A DNA stretch of 64,000 nucleotides from Candidatus Cloacimonadales bacterium (GCA_963665815.1 OY762463.1:928001-992000); one strand, 5' to 3'. Positions 10,592-64,000 are shown, counted from the first letter of the stretch. Numbers and translations are program-made. Notes: generated by a model not told the origin, from the sequence alone.

Positions 10592-10593
10592 AC

Positions 10594-19819: not shown

Positions 19820-20379
19820 ATATGATATTGATCCATTAGATATATTGACTGAATACATTCTCAACAACAAGTATTTACATATAGTCAGGAGAAACATTAA
19901 TCACTCAAAACTCTGAACAGAACGAAAAACCCTTACATTCATACTGACAATTCAGATATTAAATTAATTCATTTTATGAGTTTTCTTGTAAAACTTATCT
20001 GCTCTGATTATAGATCTTACAGGAATCCACAATAATGAAAGAATAATTAGTAGTTTTATACTGAATTGAATTGGATGAGGTCTGTAAGCAAATGGCAGTT
20101 TAGCAAAGTCATCTTTCGTCAGATCATGCTCACCCAGTGTATCTGTGAATTCAAAATCCGCACCAGTATAATCCTTTAATGACCTTGATGTAACATGGTA
20201 AATCCTCAGAGCATCGCCAATAGTTGTCTCATCGTCTATATTGTGAACAATTATGAATTTGTTAATATCCGCAATAAATGTAGCAACGACAATTACAATG
20301 AACAAGATTGCATACAAAATCAACATCGTGTAAGGTGCACCCCATTGTCCAGACCATTATTTAATTTGTTTAAGTTTGT

Positions 20380-21243: not shown

Positions 21244-21500
21244 CGCAGGAAGTCCCTCTCAACTTGAAGCTGTCCGATCTTTTTATACAAATCATCCGTA
21301 GTTTCCTCCCTCTTCTTGTTTTCTTTTTTCCGCTTATCTGAAAATATACTTGAAGCACTCTCCAGAAACTTGGTTTTCCAGTTGGTTATCAAATTGGGGT
21401 GCACATCGAATTTCGCTCCAAGTTCTACAATACTCATCTCTCCCTTTATTGCTTCAATAGCTACTTTTGCCTTAAATTCAGACGTGTAGGACTTTCTCAT
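21204..21500 (-). CDS. IS3 transposase OrfA
   Basis: RKSYTSEFKAKVAIEA HTH; LYKKIGQLQVERDFL. Confidence 0.9.
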   Translation of the reverse strand: MRKSYTSEFKAKVAIEAIKGEMSIVELGAKFDVHPNLITNWKTKFLESASSIFSDKRKKENKKREETTDDLYKKIGQLQVERDFLRKKYRQIYGKDPD

Positions 21501-22008
21501 TATAATACTCCTTAATTTACTCTTTTACTCTGAAAATTTCTCTAAAATAAAAAAGAAAAATTGAAAAGAGAAATTTTCTGAGTTAATAGTTTAACGATCG
21601 AAAATCCAAACTTAAACACTGGTCTGAATTTCAGGGTGCATTATAGTGCTATGTGGATTTAGCGAAGATTCATCATTATAATCATCAAACATGAATAGTT
21701 CCCCCAGAATTCCGTTTATAGTTTTATATCAGTTTTAAAAATTTATATGTCAAGTAAAATGCCTGATAGTTTTTTACCATATATTTGTATCTACTTTCCT
21801 TTTATTTACTTTTATCCTCATTTCATATCTATATTCTATCTGCTTCAGTCATAAATTTATAGAATCATATACAGCAATTTTATCAAATTACTGCGGATAT
21901 CCAATTCTTATGATAAAGACTGAAACTAACATCTATAAATGTTTCTTGACAAACTGAAACGGTCAAATTATCATTTGAATGTGACGTGGAAGAGTCATAT
22001 TGTAAGGA

Positions 22009-48252: not shown

Positions 48253-48317
48253 TACAAACATTGACAAGAAACATTGAATATGTCAATTGTTGTCCAATTC
48301 TTAATAAAGGAGAAACT

Positions 48318-49175
48318 ATGTTTTATGTATTTATTTCAATCATAGCATTTCTATTTGTTTTTGTTATGGGTGCTAAAATTGTTCGTCCAACCGAAAGAGC
48401 TTTAATTGAGACCCTCGGACGCTATTCAAGATTTTCGTTACCCGGATTTCACTGGATATTTCCCGGTATACAAAAAATGTTCAAAGTGAATGTAACAGAA
48501 ATTATGGCAGATATAGAGCCTCAGGAGATAATTACTAAAAATAGAATGAATGCTCAGGTAGATCTGGTCATATATTACAGAGTAAGAGCTGACGAAGAAT
48601 CCGTTAAAAAATCTCAATATAACGTAAACGACTTTCACTCCGAAATTGTAATGCTTGCTAAAACAACAGCAAGAAACGTAATCGGTGAGTTAATTTTTGA
48701 AGATGTAAACAGCAAGAGAAATGAGTTGAACAAGAAACTGCAGTTGATTCTGGACCATGAAAGCGATGCCTGGGGTGTTCAAGTTGTAAGAGTTGAGCTA
48801 AAAGAGATTCTACCACCTCACGATGTTCAGGAAACAATGAACAACGTAATTAAGGGCGAGAATAAAAAAACTGCAGCTATTGATTTTGCTTCTGCAAAGG
48901 AAATTGAAGCTGACGGAACAAGAAGAGCTCTAGTTAAAGTTGCCGAAGGTAAAAAACAGGCTGCAATTCTGGAAGCTGAAGGAAAGGCAAAATCTTATGA
49001 ATTGATTAACAAATCATTTATAGGAAATGCACAGGAGCTGAAACGATACGAAATCACCGAGAATTCTCTGGTGAATAACTCGAAAATCATCCTGACCGAT
49101 AAAGGTATCTCTCCACAATTAATTCTGGGAGATATCCCGATTACTAAGAAAACCGAAGCTCCTGCAGACAGTTAG
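48318..49175 (+). CDS. SPFH/band-7 (stomatin-like) protein
   Basis: IVRPTER, PQEIITK, WGVQVVRVELKEI, AEGKKQAAILEAEG; ATG 48318 after AAGGAG. Confidence 0.9.
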   Translation: MFYVFISIIAFLFVFVMGAKIVRPTERALIETLGRYSRFSLPGFHWIFPGIQKMFKVNVTEIMADIEPQEIITKNRMNAQVDLVIYYRVRADEESVKKSQYNVNDFHSEIVMLAKTTARNVIGELIFEDVNSKRNELNKKLQLILDHESDAWGVQVVRVELKEILPPHDVQETMNNVIKGENKKTAAIDFASAKEIEADGTRRALVKVAEGKKQAAILEAEGKAKSYELINKSFIGNAQELKRYEITENSLVNNSKIILTDKGISPQLILGDIPITKKTEAPADS

Positions 49176-49241
49176 GAGTGAACACTGACCAGACAGATAA
49201 TAAATCAGACTGTTTGAGTTAATAAATCAATTATCATCAAT

Positions 49242-49272
49242 AGCAATGAGACCAAAAACTCATTGCTTTTTT
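49242..49272 (+). terminator. Intrinsic terminator
   Basis: AGCAATGAG...CTCATTGCT plus T-run. Confidence 0.75.
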
Positions 49273-49393
49273 GGTAATTCTCACGAAATTAGAGATTGGT
49301 CATCAATAAAAGAAGCTATTTTAACAACACTTTTATTGACAGGCTGTGATGAGAGAGAGTTTCTACCAATTCAATCTGTGTTAACTTTGCCTC

Positions 49394-50014
49394 TTACTCC
49401 TCACAGGTAATCAGATATTTAATACCCATGGAATGGTCCTCAAATCGCCTCAACTTGATAATCATATTATCTTCTGATTTGGACAAGCTGACACAATTCA
49501 GTTGAATGTCCATCCCTATTGACGGCTTTTTATCGTATTTTATAAATTTCTCTTTATCAACACAGCTATAGTAATTCCCAACATACACACCAAAGTATTT
49601 CTTGTTTATGTTTGAGCCGTCCTCTCTGCCCTCAGAAAGCAATTTCATCGACTCTCTATAGAGGTTGATACAGATTGTCTCATGGACATCGTACTTTACG
49701 TTACATTGATCCAGATTAGAAAACATCACAACACCATTCTTGTCCGTTTTTTTTGTGTCGGTAGTAGAAAAGTACTTCAGATCGGCTCCACCTAAAGGCA
49801 TCAGGTTGATGCATCTGGCACGCATCTTTCTTTCAACAAGAGAATAAAAGACTTCAATGTTCTCTAAAGGCTTTCCTGTCTTCGCATCAACTACGGTTAT
49901 CTTTAATGGCCGTGTTTTCCCGGCTATTGTACAACCGAATATGAGTACCATAACCAGGAGCAGGAACATTATCTTTATGCATTTGAGCTTTGCAAGCCTT
50001 ATCTTATCATTCAT
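49394..50014 (-). CDS. Putative lipoprotein with carboxypeptidase-regulatory-like domain
   Basis: IFG-C lipobox; VVDAKTGKPLENIEV...TDKNG. Confidence 0.6.
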   Translation of the reverse strand: MNDKIRLAKLKCIKIMFLLLVMVLIFGCTIAGKTRPLKITVVDAKTGKPLENIEVFYSLVERKMRARCINLMPLGGADLKYFSTTDTKKTDKNGVVMFSNLDQCNVKYDVHETICINLYRESMKLLSEGREDGSNINKKYFGVYVGNYYSCVDKEKFIKYDKKPSIGMDIQLNCVSLSKSEDNMIIKLRRFEDHSMGIKYLITCEE

Positions 50015-50255
50015 TTCATCTCCTTTCTGTCCAGATCTGTTTATCAGAAAGAAATTGCAGATATTGTCTATAATGAGAGAGACTCATAAAAACAGCAAGA
50101 TAATTTTTTGCAGCTCTTAATTACTCCCAAAACAAAAAACTTGCCCTCATGCTCTATACATTCATATTTTAGTTATAGTGACAATATGTGTTCTTTGCAT
50201 AATTGCAGTAGCTGACTCGATTTCAGACAGCAACCAATAGTTAGAAGGTGTTAAG

Positions 50256-52091
50256 ATGGAACTAAAAAAAGATATAAATTTTTTCGGGGTTTTCAGTATT
50301 GCCACCGGAGCAATGATCAGCTCAGGTATTTTCATTCTTCCGGGATTAGCGTTCACTATGGCAGGTCCTGCAATATTCCTTACCTACCTGCTGGCAGGTG
50401 TTCTTGCTCTGGCGGGAGTATTAAGCGTTATTGAACTGGCAACAGCCATGCCAAAATCCGGTGGAGATTTCTACTTCATCAACAAAACATTCGGTCCGTT
50501 GTTGGGGACAATTTCCGGATTCCTCGGTTGGTTTACCCTCTCACTAAAAAGTGCGTTTGCAATCTTCGGTATATCGGAGATTGTGTTCCTGTTCTGGGGT
50601 ATCAGTCCGTTAATATCCGGTCTTGTATTATGTACAATCTTTGTGATTATCAACATATTCGGAGTCAAGGAAGCTGTAGCCTTTCAGAATATACTTGTTG
50701 CCGGTTTACTGGCTTTAATGCTGGCTTACATCTCTTTCGGGCTGCCAAATGTGGATGCATCCAGAATAACAAATGTGCTCTCAACAGGTTTTAACACAAT
50801 CGTTATCACTGCCGGATTCGTTTTTATAGCCTATGGCGGCCTACTCCAGGTTGTAAACGTTTCCGAGGAAATAAATAACCCTAAAAGGAATATACCGCTG
50901 GGAATTATCTCCTCAATCACCGTAGTAACAATTATTTATACTATCATAACTTATATCATTACAGGTACACTACCTGCAAAAGAGTTCAGCGGATCTCTCA
51001 CACCGGTCGCTGACTCTGCCAGATTATTCATGGGAAGCCCCGGATTCTGGGCAATCAGTATTGCCTCACTCATTGCTTTTGTTACAACTGCCAATGCCGG
51101 AATTATGGCTGCTTCCAGATATCCTTTGGCTCTCAGTAGAGAACACCTTCTTCCGAGTGCGATCTCGAAAATCAACAAGAAGTTTAAGACTCCGTCCATA
51201 GCAATTATCCTGACAGGTGTCTTCATATATGTTTCACTCCTTCTACCTCTGGAGATGCTTGTAAAAGCAGCGTCTACAGTCGTTCTCACATCCTATGTAC
51301 TGACTAATATAGCTGTGATAATCTTTAGAGAAAGCAGAATCACAAACTATAAGCCAAGCTTTAAATCACCCTTTTATCCATGGCTGCAGATTATTACAAT
51401 TATATCATTCCTGCTGATCATTGCTGATATCGGAATGCAGGCTGTGGAAATCAGTTTGTCCCTGTTGGTCATCAGTATAGGTATCTACTTTGCCTATGGA
51501 AGGAAAGCCAAAAACAAGGAATACGCCTTCCTTCACCTGATGAAACGCTTTGTTGATGATAAGCTGACCGATAATCTTCTCGAAGACGAACTCAGGGATG
51601 TAGTTATTAATAGAGACAGTATTGAGCAGGATAGCTTCGATAAACTGATCAAGTCTGCAGAAATCATTGATATGGAGAACCAGGGTGATTACGAATATAT
51701 GCTGAAGTCAATAATGAATCAACTTGTGGAAAAGACTCAGATGGATCCGAAAGAACTGCTGAATAAATACTTGAATGCTCAGAAGGAAACTAATTTTGCT
51801 ATATCAGAATTTCTGGCTATCCCCCACATTGTTATAGATGGAACAGATAAATGCTTCCTGCTGATTATCAGAAACAAAAAGGGGATTAAGTTCACCGAGA
51901 ATGAGAATAAGGTTAATGCAGTTTTCGTGCTTGGTGGAACTAAAGACAAACGAGTCGTTCACCTGAGAAACATTGCATCAATCGCCTCCCTGGTGTATGA
52001 AGAGGACTTCCAAAAGAAGTGGATTAATGCTGAGAATGAGACTGAATTGAAAAACCTGATGCTTCTGAGTAGTAGGAAGAGGTATTTTTAG
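50256..52091 (+). CDS. APC amino acid permease fused to PTS EIIA-type domain
   Basis: GAMISSGIF, PKSGG, EEINNPKRNIP; C-terminal AIPH. Confidence 0.9.
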   Translation: MELKKDINFFGVFSIATGAMISSGIFILPGLAFTMAGPAIFLTYLLAGVLALAGVLSVIELATAMPKSGGDFYFINKTFGPLLGTISGFLGWFTLSLKSAFAIFGISEIVFLFWGISPLISGLVLCTIFVIINIFGVKEAVAFQNILVAGLLALMLAYISFGLPNVDASRITNVLSTGFNTIVITAGFVFIAYGGLLQVVNVSEEINNPKRNIPLGIISSITVVTIIYTIITYIITGTLPAKEFSGSLTPVADSARLFMGSPGFWAISIASLIAFVTTANAGIMAASRYPLALSREHLLPSAISKINKKFKTPSIAIILTGVFIYVSLLLPLEMLVKAASTVVLTSYVLTNIAVIIFRESRITNYKPSFKSPFYPWLQIITIISFLLIIADIGMQAVEISLSLLVISIGIYFAYGRKAKNKEYAFLHLMKRFVDDKLTDNLLEDELRDVVINRDSIEQDSFDKLIKSAEIIDMENQGDYEYMLKSIMNQLVEKTQMDPKELLNKYLNAQKETNFAISEFLAIPHIVIDGTDKCFLLIIRNKKGIKFTENENKVNAVFVLGGTKDKRVVHLRNIASIASLVYEEDFQKKWINAENETELKNLMLLSSRKRYF

Positions 52092-52097
52092 GGGGAG

Positions 52098-52319
52098 TCA
52101 ATCCACCCTCAGCTTCCCCATGAAACGGATATAGTTTGTTTCTTTCGCCCCAATACGATGACCACAGTTTGGACAAAGGACATCATCATTTTCCTCTATG
52201 CAGTAGCTTTTCCGGATACAGGAATAATACATGCGGATTAGAGAGCCTTTCCCCACTTTCCTGTAGCGAAAGAGCTTCTGCTTGCAATCAGGACATTTGA
52301 TAGTTATGATTTTTTCCAT
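52098..52319 (-). CDS. Small zinc-ribbon protein
   Basis: CPDC...LFRYRKVGKG...CPNCG. Confidence 0.65.
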   Translation of the reverse strand: MEKIITIKCPDCKQKLFRYRKVGKGSLIRMYYSCIRKSYCIEENDDVLCPNCGHRIGAKETNYIRFMGKLRVD

Positions 52320-52667: not shown

Positions 52668-52861
52668 TTTATATTAAGTATATTTTCTTTAATTTAAATT
52701 TTTGCTTGACAAATTATATGAATTATGTTTTCTGTCTCATCGAATGTTTTTAAACAACGAGAGCATGGTTCAACACAAATCAATATGGTGTGACATTGAT
52801 TAGATTTCAATCGAGTTAAAACTTACAAAGATAATAATTACTTTATGCAGGAGGTGACAAC

Positions 52862-53308
52862 ATGACCCATGAAGACTACAGTAACACAGCAAATGAGGAA
52901 ACTCAGGATATTCAGCATTCAGAACAGCATGCAGATAGTGAGAGATCTGTAGAGCAATCCAGAATTGATCTTTTGGAGAATGAAGTTGCGAGATATCGTG
53001 AGCAGGAATGGAATAAGTATGTTAAGTACTTCAAGGATGATGAGTACAGCAGAGACTTTGCCTTTCTACAAAAACGAACAGACGAATTTTCATTTTCCGA
53101 AAATGGAAAATCGCTTACTCCGGTTCAGTTAAAAAACAACCTTGAAAAGCTTAAGCCCTACATTGAAGCAGATGTATTCGGAGTCCTCAACAATCGTGTA
53201 AGACAAAAGACCGGGGCATTTAATCATTCGGAAAATAAACGTGCAATTCCATTCAAGAGTAACCAGAAAACAAGTTTTGCAGAGATTTTCAACATCTTTG
53301 ACAACTAA
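52862..53308 (+). CDS. Putative capsid scaffold protein
   Basis: Acidic N-terminus, helical, directly upstream of MCP; strong GGAGG RBS. Confidence 0.55.
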   Translation: MTHEDYSNTANEETQDIQHSEQHADSERSVEQSRIDLLENEVARYREQEWNKYVKYFKDDEYSRDFAFLQKRTDEFSFSENGKSLTPVQLKNNLEKLKPYIEADVFGVLNNRVRQKTGAFNHSENKRAIPFKSNQKTSFAEIFNIFDN

Positions 53309-53325
53309 TACAAAGGAGAGCAAAT

Positions 53326-54282
53326 ATGCAACAGGCAACATTAATCAAACTTGCAGCAGCACATTCATTACCTGATCAGAAATCGATTATCGATTCTCTC
53401 GTTAACGAGTCCGGATTACTGAGAACCATGCCGTTCCAGAAGGCGAGTCACGGATTATTCCACAAGTACAAGGTGAAAACAGAGCTGCCTTCCGGTGGAT
53501 TCAGGAATGTAAATGGATCTATCACTCCTCATTCTACCAATGAAGAGGTTAAACAGATTGATCTTAAGATCCTGACCGATATTCAGCAGGAAGACAAAGC
53601 AATCTGCGAAGCCTATCCGGGTGGTGTGAAGAAGTTCTTTGCAGATGAGTTACCTGCTTTTGTGGAGGGGCTTGGACAGACTGCTGCCAAGCAATTCATT
53701 TATGGAACCGATCATGTGGGGTCAGAAGATGGTTTCAAAGGATTGCGTCAGTATGCACAGCAATTTGGTAACGAGATCAAACTCGGTGGATCAACAGGAA
53801 ATTCCACTTCCATACTCGTTGTCAGATGGAAAAAAGGTGTATGCTCGGGCTTATACAATGAACAGGCTTTTTCCAGGGGGCAATTGATTACTATCAAACC
53901 TATGAACAACGGAAATCCGGTAATGCTACCGTCCGATGCCGCAGCAGGTTCCATGAAACCGGTATATCAGGCATTGTATGAATCTTATCTTGGGCTTCTG
54001 GTAGCTGACAAGAAATGTACAGGGATGATCTCAGAGATATGCGAAGCCGAAAGCAAGAAACCAACTTCAGGTCAGATTGATCAGCTTATCGACCTTGTTA
54101 ACGGATCTGCCAACGACACGTTCATCTATCTTAACCGTGCATCGAGAAGACTTCTCTGGGAACTCAAGAATTCAAAAATGCAAACTGCTCCATCTGACAG
54201 GAACTACTCGACATCTATTGAGCTCTGGAATGGCATTCCGTTAGTTCTGGAAGAAAACATCACCTCAAACGAGACCGTATAG
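53326..54282 (+). CDS. Major capsid protein (HK97 fold, BPP-1 Bbp17-like)
   Basis: LP...FRNVNG, FIYG......GFKGL, GNSTSILVVRW, WNGIPL...I...E. Confidence 0.8.
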   Translation: MQQATLIKLAAAHSLPDQKSIIDSLVNESGLLRTMPFQKASHGLFHKYKVKTELPSGGFRNVNGSITPHSTNEEVKQIDLKILTDIQQEDKAICEAYPGGVKKFFADELPAFVEGLGQTAAKQFIYGTDHVGSEDGFKGLRQYAQQFGNEIKLGGSTGNSTSILVVRWKKGVCSGLYNEQAFSRGQLITIKPMNNGNPVMLPSDAAAGSMKPVYQALYESYLGLLVADKKCTGMISEICEAESKKPTSGQIDQLIDLVNGSANDTFIYLNRASRRLLWELKNSKMQTAPSDRNYSTSIELWNGIPLVLEENITSNETV

Positions 54283-54290
54283 GAGGAAGC

Positions 54291-54740
54291 ATGAAGACAG
54301 GTAAAACAATTGATAATCTGATGGTTCTCAGTAACAGCCAGAACCTTCCGAACAACGGCAATTTACTTTCTGAGAAAGCAGTATTCGTGGGCAATCAAAA
54401 CAGTATAGCTGAAGTACAAGTTTATGCTGCTACAGACATAAATATTCCTGATGCCGGTGAATTCTCAATATCAGTACATGTATGCGAGGATCAGGAAAAA
54501 ACAAACGTCTCTTCCCCGTTCAATCCGGTTCTTTCCGGCTGGACAGACTCTCTTGCCATGAAAATCATTCAGCATGAAGCAGGGGCTGGAGATGTAGTAT
54601 TCAAGCAGGGAGAGAAAATTGCATCTTTCACTGTTCCGGAAGACTTTGCTCCTGACAAACCTTATTTATGTCTCAAGTATCAATCATCAGCTGACATGAG
54701 TTCTGCAAAAGTAGATGCTTTTGTACATGTAAGCGTATAG
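54291..54740 (+). CDS. Capsid cement/decoration protein (Bbp16-like)
   Basis: IDNLMVLSNSQ N-terminus, YLCLKY...KVDAF C-terminus, directly after MCP. Confidence 0.65.
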   Translation: MKTGKTIDNLMVLSNSQNLPNNGNLLSEKAVFVGNQNSIAEVQVYAATDINIPDAGEFSISVHVCEDQEKTNVSSPFNPVLSGWTDSLAMKIIQHEAGAGDVVFKQGEKIASFTVPEDFAPDKPYLCLKYQSSADMSSAKVDAFVHVSV

Positions 54741-54747
54741 TGTAAGC

Positions 54748-54786
54748 ATGGTTCGGATAGTAGTACTTTGCTGTCCGAACCATTTT
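54748..54786 (+). terminator. Internal terminator/attenuator after the head genes
   Basis: ATGGTTCGGATAGTA / TGCTGTCCGAACCAT stem plus short T-run. Confidence 0.6.
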
Positions 54787-54801
54787 AAAAAGGAGGGATT
54801 T

Positions 54802-55209
54802 GTGAATTGGAGTGAATTATCTGCATCAGCTAATCAGCGTGTTCTGAATCTTGAAAATGAACTATCGGGCTTGGCAAAGGAAAAACTCGCTGAGAAAACA
54901 GATGCTGCAGTAACATTTCTGAAAGAAGAAATAATCAGAAATTGTGATATTGAAAGCGATTTCGATTTTTCCACCATTGATAATGCTGAAAATGCAGTAT
55001 ATATAGCTACGGTAAAGGCTCTGGAACTAATATTTTCTGATCTCTATACTGGATCAGGAAATAGTGTTTATAGAGAGAAGTCAATCAAATTCGGTTCTAT
55101 ATACAGAAGGGATTTCAAAATGAGTGTTGAGAATCTGACATATTCAACAGAAACATCTTCTGGAAGATTCTATCTGAAGAATACATTCTCAAGTATTTTT
55201 ATAAGGTAA
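54802..55209 (+). CDS. Putative head-tail adaptor
   Basis: GTG start after AAGGAGG; helical ~135 aa; position in cluster. Confidence 0.5.
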   Translation: MNWSELSASANQRVLNLENELSGLAKEKLAEKTDAAVTFLKEEIIRNCDIESDFDFSTIDNAENAVYIATVKALELIFSDLYTGSGNSVYREKSIKFGSIYRRDFKMSVENLTYSTETSSGRFYLKNTFSSIFIR

Positions 55210-55213
55210 AACA

Positions 55214-55645
55214 ATGTTCAGCATAATTAACAATATTAACTCACGTTTAGCTGAAATACTGCCTGAAACAGGATTACCTGTGCATATCCTTTCAGAAGAT
55301 GGTATGCAGACAAATCATGATATAAGTTCGTCTGTGATATTAGCAGATATAAGTTCTGTTTCCGATATAGAGGAAAAACCCGGATTAAGAACATGTTTCT
55401 CAGCAGATCTGAGCATCTGGCTTATATGCAGAAAGACAGGAAAGGTTGATGTGAACAAGATTCTGAGCAATATAAATGACATTATCTTGAATACTCTAAA
55501 GGACAGAGTTTTCAGATATCCACCAGCATTGAAAAGCATCGAGACCGTGAAGAAAGCACCAGTCTTGAGCAGTTCAGACTATAATCATTTCTTCATAAAA
55601 AAAGCAATTTATAAAATTGAGATTGAACAAAGCAACAGGAGCTAA
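55214..55645 (+). CDS. Putative tail terminator/neck protein
   Basis: Size, alpha/beta pattern, position before tail tube. Confidence 0.45.
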   Translation: MFSIINNINSRLAEILPETGLPVHILSEDGMQTNHDISSSVILADISSVSDIEEKPGLRTCFSADLSIWLICRKTGKVDVNKILSNINDIILNTLKDRVFRYPPALKSIETVKKAPVLSSSDYNHFFIKKAIYKIEIEQSNRS

Positions 55646-55647
55646 AC

Positions 55648-56586
55648 ATGGATGGAATCCGATATGGTAATTCTTACAGAATACACATTTTCAATGAAAA
55701 CAGCTATGGTAAGTTATCCGGCAACTATGTTGATGATTACAGAGTTCTATGTAACTCTATATCTATCAAACCGGAAACTGAAACAATCGAAGTAAATGTA
55801 AAAACCAATAAAATTGAGCAAAAGCATTCAGAAAAGCTTGCAGGCAGAAAAAATGTAATTGTCACAATAAAAGGTGACTTATCACCAGATCATACTATCC
55901 TGCTTGAAGCATATTCAGGTAAAACAACATTTCCTTATGAACATCAGAACTCAAATGTTCCGCGATCTTATGAAATCCACCAGTTTTTCCTCAAAGATAG
56001 TAAAGCCAACATCATCAAAGGATGTGTTCTGGAAACATTGAAGCTTTCCGGAGATAATGGCAAAACAATTGAGTTTGAAGCAGTTTTCAGAGGACAATTA
56101 TTTGAATCGGAAATTGATTGTACAAAGGACAGATTCACTGAGTTTGTATTACTTGATCATACACCTGCTGTTCCGTTCGTCTGGGGAAATAGCGTTTCAA
56201 TATCTTTACTGGAAATGGCAGAATTTAACACATTCAATAAGTTCTCTATGAACATTTCAAATACTTTTATCAACGATGAGCTTCTTTATCAGAATTCATT
56301 TCTTAAACAATGCGAACTGATCAGCTGCTCCAGCGGTGAATTTGAGTTCTCATCCAATTATCTAATAAATGAAAAAGGATGGATGGAGCAGGAAATTCTC
56401 AAAGACACTCCATTCTACAATACTTTCACCTTGTCGAACGGTTCAGATTCCTGGAAACTTGAATTCTACAGCAAGATAACAGAGATTAATCCGTCTGATC
56501 CTGAGAAACAGATTTTCCAGTTTTCGGCCAAAACATCGTTATGTGCAACAGAGACAAATCCAATGCTGAAAATAAGCAATGTGTAG
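55648..56586 (+). CDS. Tail tube (major tail) protein
   Basis: E.SYG N-terminus, GCVLETLKLSG, FSMNISN; precedes chaperone and tape measure. Confidence 0.7.
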   Translation: MDGIRYGNSYRIHIFNENSYGKLSGNYVDDYRVLCNSISIKPETETIEVNVKTNKIEQKHSEKLAGRKNVIVTIKGDLSPDHTILLEAYSGKTTFPYEHQNSNVPRSYEIHQFFLKDSKANIIKGCVLETLKLSGDNGKTIEFEAVFRGQLFESEIDCTKDRFTEFVLLDHTPAVPFVWGNSVSISLLEMAEFNTFNKFSMNISNTFINDELLYQNSFLKQCELISCSSGEFEFSSNYLINEKGWMEQEILKDTPFYNTFTLSNGSDSWKLEFYSKITEINPSDPEKQIFQFSAKTSLCATETNPMLKISNV

Positions 56587-56594
56587 GAGTGATT

Positions 56595-56996
56595 ATGAGT
56601 ATAGATATGAAAAGTTGTTTCGCAGACCATGGAGCATTCTTCATCAAACCGGTATACTATAAAGATACTAAGATTGCAGATATCAGGGCACTAAGACCTT
56701 TGGACAAGGATATGCTGCAGACGTATCTCGGGGAAATCTGTATTGTTGAAGGAGAACCGGTATACAAGAATATACAACCGGAGCATCTAAGGATAGCACG
56801 AATTGTACTTTCTCTTGGAGGAGAATTACACGGCAGAAAACACCGAATAAGCTCTGAAGGATGGACATTCGACAGAGATATCACAATGAATAATGTAAAT
56901 ATGCTGGACGAAGACATTATTGATACACTCGACAAAGCAATTTACGAGTTGGAAAAAGAGTACAATTCCAATAGGGAAATGTTAAAAAAAAACTAA
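56595..56996 (+). CDS. Tail assembly chaperone (gpG-like)
   Basis: ATG after AGGAG; ends KKN* on a slippery A-AAA-AAC. Confidence 0.75.
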   Translation: MSIDMKSCFADHGAFFIKPVYYKDTKIADIRALRPLDKDMLQTYLGEICIVEGEPVYKNIQPEHLRIARIVLSLGGELHGRKHRISSEGWTFDRDITMNNVNMLDEDIIDTLDKAIYELEKEYNSNREMLKKN

Positions 56997-57301
56997 AGGC
57001 AGCAGTAAGATTCCTGATTCTGAATGATAATGCTGATAAGCTGCTCTTTGAGGAAGCTGGAAGTATTACATTCTGTAAATATTGCTCAAACAACAGATAC
57101 TGTAGTAAGGATATGCGTTATCCGCGTATTCCGACAAACATTATGAAGGTGATCAAATACATATTTCTCAAACAGAAAGATATAACATTTCTGCCCTGGG
57201 GTAATATGCTGAGTAATCAACCGGTGTGGTTTCTTGAACTAAGTATGGCAGGACTGCAGATATTGCAGGAGATTAAGAACGAATCCGAGAAATCAGGTTG
57301 A
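56990..57301 (+). CDS. gpT-like extension expressed as G-T fusion via -1 frameshift
   Basis: -1 frame open 56990-57301 (checked codon by codon to 57113); LPWGNMLSNQPVW motif. Confidence 0.7.
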   Translation, partial: KLKAAVRFLILNDNADKLLFEEAGSITFCKYCSNNRYCSKDMRYPRIPTNIMKVIKYIFLKQKDITFLPWGNMLSNQPVWFLELSMAGLQILQEIKNESEKSG

Positions 57302-57317
57302 TACAGGTGGAGGGTAA

Positions 57318-58271
57318 ATGCAAGATATAAAACTTAATGTAGATATACAGACAGATAAAGGCAGAAGAAATCTAGGTAAGCTGGAAAACAATATTGATTC
57401 TGTGATAAAGAAGCTGATTGAAGCAAATCGGGAAATAACCAGAACACATGCTCAGTCAGAAAAGTCCGGGATAAAAAGTAAGGATAACGGTTTATACCAA
57501 TCCGGTTCGCATGGTTCAGGAGGCAAATCACTTGAAATGCAGAATCTGGATAGCATGGTTCAGATTCGTAAAGAAAAAGATCTGGAATATATTGAATGGA
57601 GAAAAGAACTGTGGATACAGGAGCACCAGTTTGAATATGCTCTTTTTCAGAGATCGATGGCTTCAGTTGAGAAAATGTACTCTAAGGCAATTGATTTGAT
57701 GATAGACAAAGATATGTCATGGAAAAAAGCTAATCAATTAGTAAAGGATTCATTGAAGGATCTGGCAAAATCTCTCCTGAAAGCAGTCGTTAAAACGTTA
57801 GTGCAGGCAGCAGTGCAATCTATTGCGTCCGGGCTGATAATTGAACGGGCTATGAAGAAACCGGCAATATTGACATCTCTCGCAACAGGTGGAACTAATT
57901 CCATTGGAGCTGTTGCAGGTATAAGAGCAACTCAGAGAGCAATGATGTTTTCTCAGGGCGGATATGTATCCGGTCAGGGTTCAGGTATTTCAGATTCTAT
58001 CCCTGCCTTTCTCTCTCACGGTGAATACGTCGTCAACGCGCAGGCAACCAGATCGAATAAAGATGTGCTCAATGATATCAACTCCGGATCTGGAGGAAGT
58101 ATCAGTGCAGGATTAGATAAAGTAGCCGGGCTCCTGAAAACAATCAACATGAATCTGGTGCGCAAGAACATGAGTGTGAATATTGTTAATGATCGCTTAG
58201 ATAATGAAACTGCTGTAATAAATCACGATCTTACCAGAAGAAAGATGATCCGCGGAGGATATAATGCATAA
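57318..58271 (+). CDS. Very short tape measure protein (317 aa)
   Basis: Helical/amphipathic; GGYVSG.GSG.SDSIPA.LS.GEYVVNA C-terminal motif; follows chaperones. Confidence 0.75.
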   Translation: MQDIKLNVDIQTDKGRRNLGKLENNIDSVIKKLIEANREITRTHAQSEKSGIKSKDNGLYQSGSHGSGGKSLEMQNLDSMVQIRKEKDLEYIEWRKELWIQEHQFEYALFQRSMASVEKMYSKAIDLMIDKDMSWKKANQLVKDSLKDLAKSLLKAVVKTLVQAAVQSIASGLIIERAMKKPAILTSLATGGTNSIGAVAGIRATQRAMMFSQGGYVSGQGSGISDSIPAFLSHGEYVVNAQATRSNKDVLNDINSGSGGSISAGLDKVAGLLKTINMNLVRKNMSVNIVNDRLDNETAVINHDLTRRKMIRGGYNA

Positions 58272-60030
58272 ATGGCAGATTATCAAGTATGAAAATGGCG
58301 GTATAGGAGGTAAATTCAATGGTAACTGCTATGTAAATCCTGATGGACGACTATCTGATAATCTACTGGCAATTCCGATTAAAATCAGGTACAGACATTA
58401 CAGATCCGGTGAATCAGAACAATATCTCTGGGGCGGAATGTATTACGGATTGAAAGTAATTGATGACATTGATTGCTACAATCTTCAGCTTAATATTGCA
58501 GGAGATGTATATTACATTCAAGACTTTTCAATGCACTACAACGAAACATATAATGTAGAAACATTCATTGTAAATGATGAGTTTACCTGCATAATAAGGG
58601 ATAAATGGAATAATCTAAGGTTTAAACATGTCACATCCGTCACAAATTCTTCTTTTGGCAGTATTCTTTTCTATATAGGCGCAGGAAGAATGTCTGATGC
58701 ATCTGCAGCACTTTGCTTCAAGGGAGTTATCTTCGCTTTTCAGTATTATGATGCAGTTGAAAATGAATATGCGAAACTGATATTCAGAAAAAACTATCTA
58801 AACGTGCAGGATTATGAGGTTGCAGATCATTTCAGGATTAAGAATGCAATCCTCTATAATGAATCTCCGGCTTTATTCTGGTCCGGGAAAACTGATATAT
58901 CAGATTATGTTGTCAGTCTTTCAAAGCTTAAATACAGAACAGACGATTATCATATTCCTCTAATCCAGAGAGCATCAATAACCTTGAAGAACGGAACTGA
59001 TCTGAAAATAGATGATATTGTAAGCATAAAGGATTCACTGACAGACAGCATACAGTATATATATCGAGTCAAATCCATAAAATCTGAGGAATACAATCAG
59101 AGTGTCATTGAAATGGAAGATATACTGGGAGATCTGTCAGATGTATACATGAGAAACATCCTTCGTAACACAAACTCTTTTTCTGTGCTTCGTTACGACT
59201 GGTGGAATACACTTGATCCGATATATTTCACAGGGAACTACCAGATAACAGAATACTTTCATGATCCGTTCAATCCGGATTACTGCTGGATATCATTTCT
59301 GTTTCTGATTAAAATGCTGTATGGTGTTCTGGAAATTGATTACATGTTAAATATTGATGTTTCCGAACTTGAAAGCAGTATATCCTATCTTAAGCAAAAT
59401 CAAAGTAATATCAGTTTCAAAGCGATTGCATTGAATCTCTATATTCTTAGAAGCATTGGCAATAATAAAGATGGCGATTGTCAGACAAATATATTACAGA
59501 TTGTCAGAAGCCTTTTCAACGCATTGAGGATTTCATACAGAATTTTTGATTCATCTATAAAACTTGAAGAAATTGATAACTCAGATATTCTTTATCCTGT
59601 CACAAATCGTCTAACATATCGTGAAACAATCACAGACAGCGTAAACGGTTATGCAATAAGCTGTAATCGACTAAGCACTTCACAAGATTACTGGAATAAC
59701 GATATTGACTGGAGTAATACTGTTTCAAACGAGTATTTTGTATCTCCATCAGATGAAATGCTGAGAAACAGTCTGGAAAAACTCACCCTGCCTGATCATT
59801 TCAACATTGGCATACATGGATCAGTTAATAATCATTTTTCAGTTGTGAATCCTGCCATTGAACAGCAGTTAGCAGTGAAACTTAACGAATTGTACACGGG
59901 GAAGAAACTGGAAACAGAATACTCCCATTGTTTCACTCCAACACATTTGTGCAGTTATTCAATTAAGGAAGATGATATTGTAAACAATATCAGTGAAGTT
60001 AAACTTCAAAGCTATCAAGGAGGATTATAA
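58264..60030 (+). CDS. Putative tail tip/hub protein
   Basis: Follows tape measure; TDISDYVVS...ASITLKN pattern; possible LamG-like N-terminus. Confidence 0.45.
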   Translation: MHKWQIIKYENGGIGGKFNGNCYVNPDGRLSDNLLAIPIKIRYRHYRSGESEQYLWGGMYYGLKVIDDIDCYNLQLNIAGDVYYIQDFSMHYNETYNVETFIVNDEFTCIIRDKWNNLRFKHVTSVTNSSFGSILFYIGAGRMSDASAALCFKGVIFAFQYYDAVENEYAKLIFRKNYLNVQDYEVADHFRIKNAILYNESPALFWSGKTDISDYVVSLSKLKYRTDDYHIPLIQRASITLKNGTDLKIDDIVSIKDSLTDSIQYIYRVKSIKSEEYNQSVIEMEDILGDLSDVYMRNILRNTNSFSVLRYDWWNTLDPIYFTGNYQITEYFHDPFNPDYCWISFLFLIKMLYGVLEIDYMLNIDVSELESSISYLKQNQSNISFKAIALNLYILRSIGNNKDGDCQTNILQIVRSLFNALRISYRIFDSSIKLEEIDNSDILYPVTNRLTYRETITDSVNGYAISCNRLSTSQDYWNNDIDWSNTVSNEYFVSPSDEMLRNSLEKLTLPDHFNIGIHGSVNNHFSVVNPAIEQQLAVKLNELYTGKKLETEYSHCFTPTHLCSYSIKEDDIVNNISEVKLQSYQGGL

Positions 60031-60464
60031 TGGCTTTCTGGGGCAAAAAATCACCGGTTATACTTTATGGAGGAAGTTTTTCTCTGGAATGGAACCTGAA
60101 TCAGCTTGATTGTACTTACAACTATTCATGGAATAAAGAAAGAGTTCTGCACAAATCTGTAATCACAGGTAAAATGTGGTCTTATGACCTTTCCCAAAAT
60201 CCTGAACAAGGAAGAATGCACATAGATATCACAATGTTTAACATGACTGAAGCAGATATGGCAATATTTCTGTCACTACGCAACAACACGTCCATTAAAG
60301 TGAGAATGCACGATGATGGTGATGCAGCACCATGGGAGGAAGTATTTCTGATTGAGCAGTATCAGCCATTTGCAGGTACAGAAGCTGAAATTCCCTATCC
60401 AGCTTTTGACTGTGGTTTTCTTAAACTTGTATCAGAGAACTATATTAATCTGCCTGATACATAA
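60030..60464 (+). CDS. Putative distal tail/structural protein
   Basis: Translationally coupled (TAATG), beta-rich, 144 aa. Confidence 0.4.
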   Translation: MAFWGKKSPVILYGGSFSLEWNLNQLDCTYNYSWNKERVLHKSVITGKMWSYDLSQNPEQGRMHIDITMFNMTEADMAIFLSLRNNTSIKVRMHDDGDAAPWEEVFLIEQYQPFAGTEAEIPYPAFDCGFLKLVSENYINLPDT

Positions 60465-60509
60465 TTTTTTATGACTATTGCAAAGCAAATCAATAATAAA
60501 GGAGGACAT

Positions 60510-60845
60510 ATGATTATTGAATGGAAGACAATAGCTGTAATTTTGTCGCTTTCAGGTACACTGGTGAATATTGTTATATCATTCTCCAAGCATTCGGCAA
60601 TGATAAAGAGAAATTCCGAGAAAATTAAAGAGCATTCAGAAACTTTAAAAAACTCGAATAATGATATAAGGGCAATCAATAAAAACTGCCAGAAAAATCA
60701 GCTCCATTTTGAGGGAAAGTATATCAGTCGTGAAGCTCTTGAGCTAAAATTTGATAATCTTGAAAACAAGATTGACGAGTTAAGTAAACAGATACATTAT
60801 ATGAACACTAATTTTGTAAAACAGTATATTGAATTGAACTGCTGA
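60510..60845 (+). CDS. Single-TM coiled-coil protein (holin/spanin-like)
   Basis: GGAGG RBS, N-terminal TM followed by coiled coil, end of tail operon. Confidence 0.4.
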   Translation: MIIEWKTIAVILSLSGTLVNIVISFSKHSAMIKRNSEKIKEHSETLKNSNNDIRAINKNCQKNQLHFEGKYISREALELKFDNLENKIDELSKQIHYMNTNFVKQYIELNC

Positions 60846-61077
60846 GCAATGAAAAAAGTGAGTTTTAACAGTCAGAATATTATCCTAATAATGTTTTCTG
60901 AGGCAATATTCAAAAAAATCAGCTGTAAAACACTGTTAGTTAAAGATCTGTTGATTTCTGCAAATCAAACATCAAATAGTTGTAAATTGTAATATTCCGC
61001 ATAACAACTATTGTTCATGACTTATAATATGTCGATTCATTCTTTACACGAAAAAACAGACTGTAGATATTTTTTGA

Positions 61078-61106
61078 TTGACAAAAACCTTGTTAAGACA
61101 TAATTT
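61078..61106 (+). promoter_or_regulatory. Sigma70-like promoter for the lipoprotein pair
   Basis: TTGACA-17 bp-TAATTT. Confidence 0.4.
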
Positions 61107-61121
61107 ATATATGAGGTAATT

Positions 61122-61508
61122 ATGAAATCCATGAAAATATTTGTTATCTTAATAATGAGTATCTTTCTTTTTAATTGTGCTGTTTCTTCAGGTTCTACAA
61201 GAAGATCCGGAGGAAACACGAATTATCGTCAATACATGACAAATGCAAAAGATTTTGCAAAGAATTATGAATGGAAGCAAGCTGCGGATGAGATGGAGAA
61301 TTCTCTGGATTTATATGAAACAGGAGAAGGTTACTATCTTGCAGGAGTATACTACATTAAAGCTTCCATAAATTCTGACAATGATTACACAGCGAAGAGC
61401 CTTTATAAAAAAGGAAAGAAATACTTAAAGATTTCTGCAACTGATTTTGGGTATAAACCTGCAGAAAAAACACTAGAAGATATAAAAAGCCTTAAAACCT
61501 ATAAATAA
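61122..61508 (+). CDS. Putative lipoprotein, TPR-like
   Basis: LFN-C after hydrophobic stretch, helical repeat. Confidence 0.6.
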   Translation: MKSMKIFVILIMSIFLFNCAVSSGSTRRSGGNTNYRQYMTNAKDFAKNYEWKQAADEMENSLDLYETGEGYYLAGVYYIKASINSDNDYTAKSLYKKGKKYLKISATDFGYKPAEKTLEDIKSLKTYK

Positions 61509-61567
61509 AAAACATCGTAAATAATAGATATTCAAACTATCAACCAATCAAACTCTTTGGAGAAACC

Positions 61568-61948
61568 ATGAAGAGAATGGCTATTATTATTTTACTGATT
61601 ACTGTATTTTTTTTAGTTGGATGCAGCAGATTCAAAACGTTGTCTAACAACACTGCGACTTATCCGGATGGAAAGGTTGCAAGAGCTTTTTCTTTTTATG
61701 TGAAAGACTTTCAGAATGATAACCTTACATGGTCTGAAATCGAAAAATTTTCATCAGAACAATACACTTCAGATGTTGATACTCTCTACATATACTATTT
61801 TGATGAAGAAATGGTCGGATCAACTATCAGAGGTTTAAAACTGAAAAGAAGTTACAGAAAAAAATGTATTGCGATTTTTAAACAAATACCGGGCAATAAA
61901 AGTCGTTTAATTCAATTTCCTTTCGAGGAGTCCAGACTTAATCAATAA
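61568..61948 (+). CDS. Putative lipoprotein
   Basis: LVG-C lipobox. Confidence 0.65.
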   Translation: MKRMAIIILLITVFFLVGCSRFKTLSNNTATYPDGKVARAFSFYVKDFQNDNLTWSEIEKFSSEQYTSDVDTLYIYYFDEEMVGSTIRGLKLKRSYRKKCIAIFKQIPGNKSRLIQFPFEESRLNQ

Positions 61949-62141
61949 ATGGTAGAATTCTGTGAGTAAGATTTCCAATTGCTGAATTAGTAATAATCAT
62001 TATGGAAGCAATTATTGTTATAATTGTGATAATTACAGCAGCATAAGTTATTTTATTCTCATATTTCCGAAGCAAGTGGGGTTGGAAATACCAGATATAT
62101 CCAATAACTATAATCAAAACTAAAGCAATAATCTCTATCAT
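61938..62141 (-). CDS. Small two-TM membrane protein
   Basis: AAGGAG RBS, two hydrophobic segments. Confidence 0.5.
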   Translation of the reverse strand: MIEIIALVLIIVIGYIWYFQPHLLRKYENKITYAAVIITIITIIASIMIITNSAIGNLTHRILPFID

Positions 62142-62192
62142 TTACGGAATCTTCTCCTTTTAAAAATTACATGTTTATCTAAGAGGGCAAAA

Positions 62193-62519
62193 ATGGCAAG
62201 TAATTTAAAAAAACAAGTAACAAATATTTATCCGAAAAACAATGAAAACAGAAAAACCGAATATAATTGTTCCAAGACAGTTGAAACTGAGATAAAAGCT
62301 GCTCAGGAAAATGATTTAAAAGTTGTAAGTACTCTTATCCTGACTCTTGAAGAACTGTTTTCAAGCAATGAACTTGACCTGAAAACTGCATCATCAATAT
62401 TGAATCAGCTTGTTACAACCAGAAAAAATATTCTGTCATACAATATTGTTGAAAACAGCTCAGGTCAGAACTGGATCAATTCCATGCAGATAAGGGATTT
62501 ACATGGAAAATCAATATAA
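62193..62519 (+). CDS. Putative terminase small subunit
   Basis: 108 aa helical ORF overlapping the terL start. Confidence 0.45.
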   Translation: MASNLKKQVTNIYPKNNENRKTEYNCSKTVETEIKAAQENDLKVVSTLILTLEELFSSNELDLKTASSILNQLVTTRKNILSYNIVENSSGQNWINSMQIRDLHGKSI

Positions 62520-63930
62520 CAAACTCCTCAGCTCAGGAAATAGTTACATCCAGCTCAACAGAAACCAGATTGTATTTTTTAATTCAATAAGTAATTATGA
62601 TATTGTTGTTGATTCCGGGACCTGGCGAAGTGGAAAATCCTTCGGGCTCTGTCTTTTTGCAATTCTTCGAATGAAGAAATATCCGGGTATCAGACAGTTC
62701 ATTGGTCGCAAGGAAATGTCATCTCTGAAAGAAACCACATTCCTTAAATTTCTGGAAATTCTTACGGTGTTCTTCAACTTAACTGAGAAAACAGACTTTA
62801 AAGTTGTTACTACTCCAAGACCACAGATTACTTTCCCAAATGGATCTGTCTGTGTTTTCGGTGATTTGGATACAACCCGTGTAAATAAATGGCTTTCTGC
62901 CGAATATTCTGATGTCATGATAGATGAAGGACAAGAAATCTCAGAGATTGCCTTTGATAAAATCAGATCCAGACAAACTCAAACAATTATTGAGAAGCAT
63001 TCAAAAGGAAAATCCTGCAATAAATGTATCATGGTAATGAATCCCCCGGAAACAGCCGAGAGACATTGGACACACAGTAAATTCAGAAATCCTGCCACGA
63101 AAGTAAAGAATTCAATCATTATCTACTCAACACTTAAAAATAATACTCAGAATATTCCGGGAAATTATCTCGAAAATATGCTGAACTCTGTGGACAAAAA
63201 CATTGCTGACATTTACTTGAATGGAATGTGGAAGCCACTTAATACACACCTTGTTTATCCTGATTACAATTTTCATCAGGACTCTGACGGTAACTATAAT
63301 GAAGGTGGTAATCTTAAGTTTCTTAACTACAGAGACGATCTTGATAACTATATGTCTATTGATTTTGGCTGGGTGCATCCAATGTCAATAGGCTGCTGGC
63401 AATACGACAGAAACAATAACAAATTGTACAGACTTTATGAGGTTGTAGAATCATTCATGAAACCTGAAAAATACTGTACTCTTCTGCAAGGTGAAAAGAT
63501 CATTCATAACAATCGAGAATATAAGCTCCCTTTCTCAATTATGGATTCAGTTATAGTTGTTGGACCCGAATGCAGACAGAGAAGACAGGAAAGCAGCGGT
63601 AAAAGCAATCTTGATATAATGAAATCGCACTTCAAAAACAAGTTCAAGATAAATATAAAAATTGTGAGTACTTCTATACAGAAATCCATACTTGCAGTCA
63701 GAGCCATGATTCTTGATGCATCAGGGAACAGACATCTTTTCATTGATCCAAGGCATAATACAAGATTTATAAAAGACTGCTGCAGTTATCATTATCCTGT
63801 AGATAAAGAAGGTAATATAACGAGTGAAGACCCGGAAAAAGACAATATTTCTGATCATACACAGGATGAAACACGATATTTAATAAGCTACTTATATAAA
63901 AGAGGAAACACAAACTGGCAAACATCATAG
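62503..63930 (+). CDS. terL: Terminase large subunit (PBSX-like)
   Basis: Walker A GTWRSGKS, Walker B VMIDE, MNP, nuclease SIDFG and DHTQDETRY. Confidence 0.9.
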   Translation: MENQYNKLLSSGNSYIQLNRNQIVFFNSISNYDIVVDSGTWRSGKSFGLCLFAILRMKKYPGIRQFIGRKEMSSLKETTFLKFLEILTVFFNLTEKTDFKVVTTPRPQITFPNGSVCVFGDLDTTRVNKWLSAEYSDVMIDEGQEISEIAFDKIRSRQTQTIIEKHSKGKSCNKCIMVMNPPETAERHWTHSKFRNPATKVKNSIIIYSTLKNNTQNIPGNYLENMLNSVDKNIADIYLNGMWKPLNTHLVYPDYNFHQDSDGNYNEGGNLKFLNYRDDLDNYMSIDFGWVHPMSIGCWQYDRNNNKLYRLYEVVESFMKPEKYCTLLQGEKIIHNNREYKLPFSIMDSVIVVGPECRQRRQESSGKSNLDIMKSHFKNKFKINIKIVSTSIQKSILAVRAMILDASGNRHLFIDPRHNTRFIKDCCSYHYPVDKEGNITSEDPEKDNISDHTQDETRYLISYLYKRGNTNWQTS

Positions 63931-63944
63931 AAAAAGGAGGGATT

Positions 63945-64000
63945 ATGAGTTTAATAAGAGAATCATTAATGAGGGCAAAATGGAATGATGACATGGCAAG
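63945..64000 (+). CDS. 5' end of next gene (portal expected by synteny), truncated by window
   Basis: AAGGAGG RBS, then MSLIRESLMRAKWNDDMA; product inferred from position only. Confidence 0.35.
   Translation, partial: MSLIRESLMRAKWNDDMA

Follow-up and report, generated by a model that had tools for sequence, protein, structure and literature searches.

A candidate gene-transfer-agent-like gene set of phage origin in one family of Cloacimonadales

The window analysed here, a stretch of 64,000 nucleotides (G000:C1:928001-992000) from the single-contig, 3.96-Mb genome G000 of Candidatus Cloacimonadales bacterium, ends in a cluster of 17 phage-type genes that runs for ~12.5 kb from 52862 to the equivalent of 65321 (coordinates without a genome prefix are window positions, and those beyond 64000 are window-equivalent). 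We regard this cluster as a phage-derived, host-owned particle gene set (viriform) that is fixed in one Cloacimonadales family and is most likely a vertically inherited gene transfer agent (GTA)-like element, a reading that the comparative evidence makes probable. It would most likely be the first GTA candidate in the phylum Cloacimonadota. The reading follows from gene content, inheritance, selection and the occupation of multiple loci, which are traits listed for GTAs; excerpts of a 2024 review name structural and packaging genes only, multiple loci and vertical inheritance, and state that experiments are needed (PMC11841831). A preliminary description, made from the window alone, had proposed a GTA-like particle system at this position. 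Gene content, presence in 8/8 family genomes, synteny, tree topology, the ratio of nonsynonymous to synonymous substitution rates (dN/dS), split loci and host-like GC content all appear to favour that proposal.

Inheritance and dispersal of the element

Within the cluster, 16 co-directional open reading frames (ORFs) occupy the plus strand from 52862 to 63930, and the right end is formed by a portal gene and then a hairpin terminator (equivalent 65355-65373), beyond which lie ordinary host genes. Phage-derived structural and packaging genes stand here unaccompanied by any for replication, integration or lysogeny: neither the cluster nor its neighbourhood yielded an integrase, excisionase, replication gene or repressor, the nearest of four tyrosine-recombinase matches in the whole G000 genome (at 2,058,028) is more than 1.06 Mb away, and the genome-wide count of serine recombinases is zero. 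A 20-kb region around the cluster contains no tRNA gene, and no att repeat was recognized, in that none of the 20 listed repeat families (28 found) brackets the cluster or pairs the left intergenic region with its right end. The marks of an integrated prophage (integrase, att repeats, repressor and replication modules) are missing. The cluster also does not resemble a phage satellite, such as a phage-inducible chromosomal island (PICI) or capsid-forming PICI, as it lacks integrase and replication genes and possesses its own tail, terminase and portal, or a tailocin, which would comprise tail genes only, as capsid, portal and terminase are present and conserved. The preliminary description had named downstream integrase, replication and repressor modules with att sites, and patchy presence among close strains, as outcomes that would refute its proposal. 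Neither was seen: the sequence downstream of the window holds the portal gene followed by host genes, and neither an integrase or replication gene nor an att site.

The window's family (f1) comprises eight species genomes in four genera (g1 to g4). A capsid profile search matched 10 of 232 Cloacimonadota genomes, namely 8/8 of family f1 and 2/224 others (10/203 at the order level), and each family genome carries one copy of this capsid type. The two matches outside the family are G119 (36% identity) and G011 (49% identity, on a short contig). The latter, from another family, could not be classed as phage or domesticated from its 7.8-kb contig, where the connector genes are phage-like in number and the tape measure has 423 amino acids (aa) or more. 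A pattern-based scan of 185,579 species genomes returned only these Cloacimonadota loci. The nearest capsids elsewhere are 38% (IMG/VR), 36% (JGI metagenome contigs) and 30% (named phages) identical, and a scan of metagenome contigs yielded only phage-type relatives (28-36% identity), without adding any close member.

In the sister species G001, all 17 genes are intact, colinear and enclosed by the same flanking genes. Pairwise dN/dS values, calculated by the NG86 method with our own code and given only where the synonymous rate (dS) could be estimated, lie between 0.005 and 0.17 for G000 versus G001 (proportion of synonymous differences, pS, 0.39-0.86; six genes saturated). In the other genera, the head-tail module (g01 through g11) is colinear in G003-G007 and lies between different host genes; in G003 these are an ammonium transporter on the left, and a 299-aa leucine-rich-repeat (LRR)-like gene, an M15 peptidase and a phosphate-binding protein on the right. 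The portal orthologs (51-55% identity) stand at a separate locus. Specifically, portal and capsid genes share one contig in G003 at 189,910 and 2,506,928, are 383 kb apart in G005 (1,735,316 and 1,352,332), and in G006 and G004 portal and head-tail module are on different contigs, each beside host genes. In g3/g4 this second locus carries a small terminase (TerS; phrog_309) and a large terminase (TerL; phrog_2 at 1.1e-39) 5' of the portal. In G003 it is flanked on both sides by host genes (dnaX-like, glycosyltransferase), and its downstream neighbours are common to G003, G005 and G006. Similarly, G002 has a TerL of the g1 type and its small partner beside four host genes, on a contig other than that of the head-tail module. 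Only genus g1, to which the window belongs, has the two modules side by side, and the genes are spread over several loci in G002-G006.

Purifying selection on intact genes is also evident between G003 and G006, with dN/dS of 0.03-0.30 for the head-tail genes, 0.078 for TerS, 0.059 for TerL and 0.060 for the portal, and spurious overlapping ORFs, which served as an internal control, gave values >1. In this pair, dS values of the element (0.45-2.2) resemble those of rpoB (0.76) and of the host genes nearby (0.95-2.6). For seven genomes, a concatenate of seven head-tail genes (2257 columns) and RpoB yielded one and the same unrooted topology, three splits having bootstrap values of 100 and the fourth of 62-71, and the portal tree agrees with RpoB for the six genomes with a portal sequence. 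Module GC follows host GC (module/host 0.38/0.38 in G000 and G001, 0.46/0.42 in G002, 0.52/0.51 in G003, 0.565/0.548 in G006 and 0.63/0.57 in G004). In G000 itself the cluster GC is 0.364 vs 0.360 for the host (60th percentile), and its tetranucleotide distance falls at the 65th percentile of 318 genome windows. The marks of host ownership anticipated in the preliminary description were thus recovered, as orthologs in 8/8 family genomes with a syntenic locus in the sister species, as low dN/dS (0.005-0.17 for G000/G001), and as head-tail and portal trees that match RpoB.

These data bear on two alternatives. The first, a decaying defective prophage remnant with no present function, is strongly disfavoured and the least probable of the explanations considered. 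It would fit a gene set reduced to structural and packaging genes, with no lysin or regulator seen in the G000 cluster. However, two species whose synonymous divergence is close to saturation both keep 17/17 ORFs intact, at dN/dS values no higher than 0.17, and the same holds for genus g3; the presence in 8/8 family genomes, a conserved programmed frameshift and GC adjusted to hosts from 0.38 to 0.63 are also at odds with decay. The second, a still-mobile element (a phage with unusual integration, or a helper-dependent satellite) that re-enters the same sites in related hosts, is also very improbable. Exchange or re-acquisition could explain why the terminase type differs between genera and why the cluster is more diverged between G000 and G001 than average DNA, but the searches turned up neither att repeats nor any gene for an integrase, an excisionase, replication or a repressor, the g3 modules are separated by 0.38 Mb to megabases, every genome has one copy whose tree equals that of RpoB and whose GC follows the host, and the capsids in IMG/VR, JGI metagenome contigs and named phages are all at most 38% identical. 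The absence of selfish modules, the single copy in every family genome, purifying selection, agreement with host tree and GC, and parts placed megabases apart therefore argue that the element is neither a mobile phage nor a decaying remnant.

Several observations weigh against a vertically inherited GTA-like element. The terminase is non-orthologous across the family, being of the phrog_979 type in g1/g2 and of the phrog_2 type in g3/g4. This difference shows an apparent later exchange with phages, and the swap between genera is a caveat to the vertical inheritance otherwise indicated by 8/8 presence, RpoB-like topology and GC. The cluster is only 76% identical in nucleotide sequence between G000 and G001, with dS often saturated, compared to 81-92% for sampled ordinary DNA (40 kb of the window) and a dS of 0.14-0.32 in the rpoB neighbourhood. 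Its right-hand neighbours are about as diverged (dS 2.1 for a tetratricopeptide repeat (TPR) gene, 3.5 for a beta-helix gene), whereas the left-flank host genes at 48261-52319 have dS of 0.11-0.60 and 88-96% nucleotide identity to G001, against dS >1 for most genes of the cluster and right flank. This sharp step at the left cluster edge suggests past recombination, and the cluster region of the G000-G001 pair either evolves faster or has recombined with other lineages, so that simple clock-like co-divergence does not apply. No dedicated regulator was found for the cluster, the conserved promoter motif being a general one, and no endolysin was found in the G000 cluster; the only G000 homolog of the M15 lysin adjacent to the g3 cluster is 876 kb off, by another phage-like module. 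The family sample is limited to eight species genomes that are related and non-independent. Neither TerL nor portal was found in G007, and no portal was found in G002 (81% complete). An assembly gap is the likelier cause in G007, because the host flank there, with 92-95% identity to its G006 counterpart, breaks off exactly at the end of contig C5. Finally, if the head is T=7, as in BPP-1 and epsilon15, it could hold the whole 12.5-kb G000 cluster, so that a head too small for its own gene set, a trait of GTAs, is not evident for G000; the g3 loci, at least 0.38 Mb apart, are beyond any capsid.

Proposed particle and a competing function

As a GTA-like element, the gene set would operate as follows. 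A host-type promoter would drive the genes for scaffold, capsid, connectors, tube, G/GT chaperones, short tape measure and tip, whose products would assemble into a small particle bearing a non-contractile tail. The terS-like gene product, TerL and portal would then fill the head with DNA, presumably by random headful packaging, and this DNA would be mostly host chromosome, because the element has no replication or integration genes and in most genera occupies distant loci. Release and delivery to recipient cells would complete the cycle.

The main rival, which we consider unlikely, retains a host-owned, DNA-containing tailed particle and assigns it another function, either as a PBSX-like killer that lyses its producer and kills competitors or as a decoy or defence against related phages. 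The same comparative evidence fits this alternative, as it demonstrates selection in favour of the host but does not distinguish among functions. The fast evolution of g10, the presumed tail tip gene (61.5% identity within g1), and of the g3 LRR-like 299-aa protein (44% identity, dN/dS 0.30) is as seen in target-recognition arms races; yet fast receptor binders are equally expected in a GTA, and sequence does not separate killing from transfer. PBSX of Bacillus subtilis, a GTA-like defective prophage, is a chromosomally fixed phage-like particle that packages host DNA and exemplifies the 'killer particle' function. Its tail is contractile, and it encodes a repressor and lysis genes of its own, whereas the tail here is of the non-contractile tube type, and the cluster scans found no sheath gene and no repressor. 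In the passages of a recent study relevant here, PBSX is cited as GTA-like and packs 13.4-kb chromosomal fragments (PMC12946183).

Genes of the cluster and its flanks

The preliminary description had assigned a function to most cluster genes. Its calls of major capsid protein, tail tube, G/GT chaperones, tape measure and TerL are borne out by the matches given below, while its labels of scaffold, cement, neck, tip, holin-like protein and terS correspond to position or weak leads. All genes are on the plus strand unless stated otherwise.

Among the head genes, the major capsid protein (53326..54282) is of the epsilon15 gp7 / BPP-1 Bbp17 type, as indicated by Pfam PF20911 GP7 (1.5e-25), NCBIfam MCP_gp7_epsi_15 (NF045672; 138 bits, cut-off 75) and profile matches to the PDB entries 3j4u (BPP-1, 6.8e-21) and 3j40 (epsilon15, 3.7e-17). 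It is 99.4% identical between G000 and G001 (dS 0.55, dN/dS 0.005). Upstream, g01 (52862..53308) encodes an acidic 148-aa protein, a possible scaffold by position, with no family match in PHROG, Pfam and NCBIfam scans, weak orthologs (22-27% identity) 5' of the capsid gene in G003-G007, and a dN/dS of 0.12 against G001. Downstream, g03 (54291..54740; 149 aa) is a conserved head-associated gene with orthologs in 8/8 family genomes and in phage contigs. It gave no PDB match by sequence-profile search, and its sole lead, the presence of PF21190 Bbp16 in 25% of the proteins of an Atlas cluster, weakly points to a cement or decoration protein. The presumed head-tail connectors g04 (153 aa as called) and g05 (143 aa) are assigned by position (54748..55645), with a dN/dS of 0.17 against G001 where measurable. 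The true start of g04 is probably ~18 codons downstream of the called one, and its product is weakly similar to the C-terminus of a 237-245-aa protein at the same position in phage contigs; g05 had no matches in PHROG, Pfam or PDB profile searches.

The tail genes follow in the order tube, G/GT via a –1 frameshift, and tape measure, which is the tail assembly module of long-tailed phages. The tube protein (55648..56586; phrog_290 at 2.9e-08) has a duplicated tube domain of the T5 pb6 / P74-26 type. Specifically, its AlphaFold2 (AF2) model (predicted local distance difference test (pLDDT) score 70.4, predicted template modelling (pTM) score 0.75) matched 8xan_A best in Foldseek (E 2.4e-13, TM 0.67), then the T5 pb6 and P74-26 tubes; the entries matched include 5ngj_B, 9iny_A and 8ed0_A. 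Sequence-profile searches of the PDB with tube and tip alignments gave nothing meaningful. The chaperones G and GT are encoded at 56595..57301, where G ends at 56996, a slippery A9 run (56984-56992) sits just 5' of the stop codon of G, and reading in the –1 frame continues without a stop for another 100 codons, the T part extending to 57301. Poly-A site and open –1 frame were seen directly in 7/8 family genomes; in G004 the G ORF was mis-called and the T peptide is conserved there too, so that it is kept in 8/8. The tape measure (57318..58271; 317 aa) matches phrog_25241 at 8.9e-18.

The presumed tail tip or receptor-binding protein g10 (58264..60030; 588 aa) is assigned by position and by its Atlas neighbours, which are viral Laminin_G_3 proteins. 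It is among the fastest-evolving products of the cluster (61.5% identity to G001, 24-30% to other genera), and AF2 with a seven-row alignment gave an unusable model (pLDDT 39.9). Next to it, g11 (60030..60464; 144 aa) encodes a conserved tail-associated protein, recognized by orthologs at 39-45% identity in G003-G007, with a dN/dS of 0.028 against G001. By contrast to the genes shared across the family, g12 (60471..60845) is restricted to genus g1; one membrane segment followed by a heptad-like polar region, together with weak PHROG matches to an unknown family, a lipoprotein and an Rz-like spanin, weakly suggests a holin- or spanin-like protein.

The preliminary description had viewed the block as uninterrupted, which does not hold, as two small lipoprotein-like genes and a minus-strand ORF separate the tail genes from the packaging genes. 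The former, g13 and g14 (61122..61508 and 61568..61948), each encode a signal peptide followed by Cys, are restricted to G000 and G001 (dN/dS 0.12 and 0.045), and are probably not virion parts. The minus-strand ORF (61938..62141) predicts a 67-aa membrane protein with two segments, 75% identical in G001. Packaging begins with g15 (62193..62519; 108 aa), a presumed small terminase by position, which overlaps the TerL start, had no family match in the cluster protein scans, and has an ortholog adjoining TerL in G002. TerL itself (62503..63930) is of the phrog_979 type (2.4e-18), with Walker A (GTWRSGKS) at residue 39 and Walker B (VMIDE) at residue 138, in agreement with the intact ATPase reported earlier. 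Among 40 relatives, this TerL type occurs only in G001 (85%) and G002 (66%). The portal (458 aa; PF05133 at 8.5e-07, phrog_533 at 9.1e-09) lies directly 3' of TerL at the equivalent of 63945..65321 (G000:991945-993321), with 63945..64000 inside the window.

GGAGG-like ribosome-binding sites precede most cluster genes, as noted before. In addition, a promoter-like 14-mer with a perfect –35 hexamer (TTGACA) is located at 52699..52712 on the plus strand, 163 nt 5' of the first gene. It occurs once in the 3.96-Mb G000 genome, and the identical 14-mer lies 5' of the head-tail module in G003, G005, G006 and G007 (4/5 other genomes searched). A role as a system-specific regulon signal was ruled out by near-matches, which number 6-13 per genome vs 0-5 for a reversed control and sit before ordinary host genes, and by extra exact copies in G003 and G004 that also precede ordinary genes. 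Because near-matches are common and lie upstream of ordinary host genes, the 14-mer is best read as a general strong host-type promoter and not as the mark of a specific regulon. In an Rfam scan, 60 kb spanning both G003 loci as well as the G000 cluster gave zero matches. A search of sequencing runs listed three that contain the sequence, all of one study, kept as contigs and possibly representing the source sample, and none of them recorded as RNA.

On the left, the cluster abuts an APC permease-EIIA fusion gene and a Zn-ribbon gene, consistent with the host genes described there earlier. On the right, the terminator is followed by a minus-strand TPR gene, a gene for a 1320-aa beta-helix protein, and FeMo-cofactor-type, MinD/Fe-S and DUF134 genes. 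A beta-helix surface-type protein of ~1300 aa adjoins the packaging module in G000 (G000:C1:994583-998545 = L002 4583-8545), G001 and G005 (L035 172-5703), with ~24% identity between genera, and could be there by chance or as an accessory fibre. With the G005 counterpart only 24% identical, it is no more than a possible member of the system. Two paralogous 133-aa proteins with a hydrophobic N-terminus are encoded just 5' of the head-tail module in G003 (L021 3785-4806), G006 and G007, and were not found at the G005 locus; their G000 homolog (G000:C1:3571858-3572301) lies beside type II secretion system (T2SS) F and E genes. These proteins are possibly pilin-like. The portal-TerL spacer of G006 (L036 about 10480-10610) contains a short repeat resembling repetitive extragenic palindromic (REP) elements, with dozens of copies across G007.

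A second phage-like module in G000 (G000:C1:104983-110481 = L038 4983-10481) carries a PF04860 portal and a 582-aa XkdF-type protease fusion, together with an M15 peptidase, three small ORFs and another ORF of 180 aa. Across the family, the protease fusion occurs in multiple copies, fragmentary and patchily distributed (six matches in G005, none in G004), so that this module appears to behave like a mobile element or satellite, in contrast to the fixed single-copy cluster. Elsewhere in the window, a 1.3-kb repeat at 20324-21646, probably an insertion sequence, has at least seven copies at 95% identity on several G001 contigs, and a short stretch at 13292-13342 matches tandem copies with 35-nt spacing at G001:C8:1275046-1275186, plus other sites.

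Phage ancestry, known systems and significance

Relatives in IMG/VR and metagenomes (e.g. L050, L059, L064 and L066) have capsids of 34-38% and portals of 26-29% identity to the element. Together with the probable prophages in G119 and on G001 contig C13, they share its families of capsid, portal, tube and connector proteins and arrange them in the same relative order, and this type of phage is likely to represent the ancestral lineage of the element. The G001 example is a second, distant capsid copy (35%) at G001:C13:74983-75897 (L114 about 9983-10909) beside a 989-aa tape measure, and is probably a conventional prophage of that lineage. In the phage contigs, the portal is followed by a 293-aa head-morphogenesis gene (phrog_595/4728), one gene, scaffold, capsid, four connectors, tube, G/GT and tape measure, with methyltransferase/ParB-like genes upstream. 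Thus, TerL, portal, 293-aa gene and scaffold are contiguous in the phages and accompanied by non-structural genes, whereas the family element is reduced and split: the head-morphogenesis gene is absent, and the tape measures have 317-402 aa compared to 713-962 aa. Tail length scales with the tape measure at ~0.15 nm per residue, and the tail would therefore be roughly one third as long. All four IMG/VR contigs that reach upstream of the portal carry a g3-type TerL adjoining a portal of this family. Because the phage contigs place this TerL type beside the portal, the g3/g4 terminase is probably ancestral, and the g1/g2 branch probably replaced terS and terL while keeping the portal.

A more complete account, which we put forward tentatively as one that may prove correct, is that family f1 carries the first Cloacimonadota GTA, which would have arisen when a phage that combined a capsid of the BPP-1/epsilon15 type with a T5-type tube was independently domesticated. 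The tape measure would have been cut to about one third, the head-morphogenesis gene lost, the packaging operon relocated, and the terminase of one branch swapped for an unrelated type.

Among known systems, RcGTA of Rhodobacter capsulatus and its relatives (Rhodogtaviriformidae) offer a close parallel in organization, as a compact head-tail-packaging cluster without replication or integration genes. RcGTA-like elements, as presented in parts of the review cited above, also show clade-wide vertical inheritance, purifying selection, a short non-contractile tail and, in most members, more than one locus (PMC11841831). However, we detected no sequence relationship to RcGTA: the capsid here is of the epsilon15 gp7/BPP-1 family (NF045672/PF20911), no other NCBIfam model, GTA models included, scored above cut-off for 10 cluster proteins, gene order differs, and the tube is of the duplicated-domain, T5-like kind. 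With a capsid of another family and no match to a GTA model, the element is not of the RcGTA type. In addition, RcGTA-like elements span a whole class, whereas the element described here, a putative GTA, is from one family of eight species. The BPP-1 (Bordetella) and epsilon15 (Salmonella) phages match in capsid family, but identity to named phages is 24-30%, and these are short-tailed phages of ~40 kb, whereas here the same capsid type is joined to a long-tail module. The likeness of the tube model to T5 pb6 and P74-26 tubes is structural.

A second comparison is FpGTA of Faecalibacterium (Nat Commun 2026), which, in the sections of that report drawn on here, consists of two operons ~125 kb apart that are conserved across species of a genus (PMC12946183). 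It resembles the present element in being GTA-like, outside the Alphaproteobacteria and found in strict anaerobes, and differs in being podovirus-like with packaged fragments of 8.4-8.9 kb (PMC12946183), compared to the siphovirus-type tail (tube, G/GT, tape measure) predicted here.

Proven GTAs are few and mostly from Alphaproteobacteria, and finding others is, in the excerpts consulted, the main obstacle to judging how common this route is (PMC11841831, PMC12946183). A full-text literature search found no paper that joins 'gene transfer agent' with Cloacimonadota or Cloacimonetes. The candidate presents a concrete target for long-read sequencing of encapsidated DNA, and a natural control exists in its unreduced free phage relatives. 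The apparent replacement of the terminase within a domesticated element would be an unusual event and, if this account is true, the terminase would be a replaceable part that sets which host DNA is packaged.

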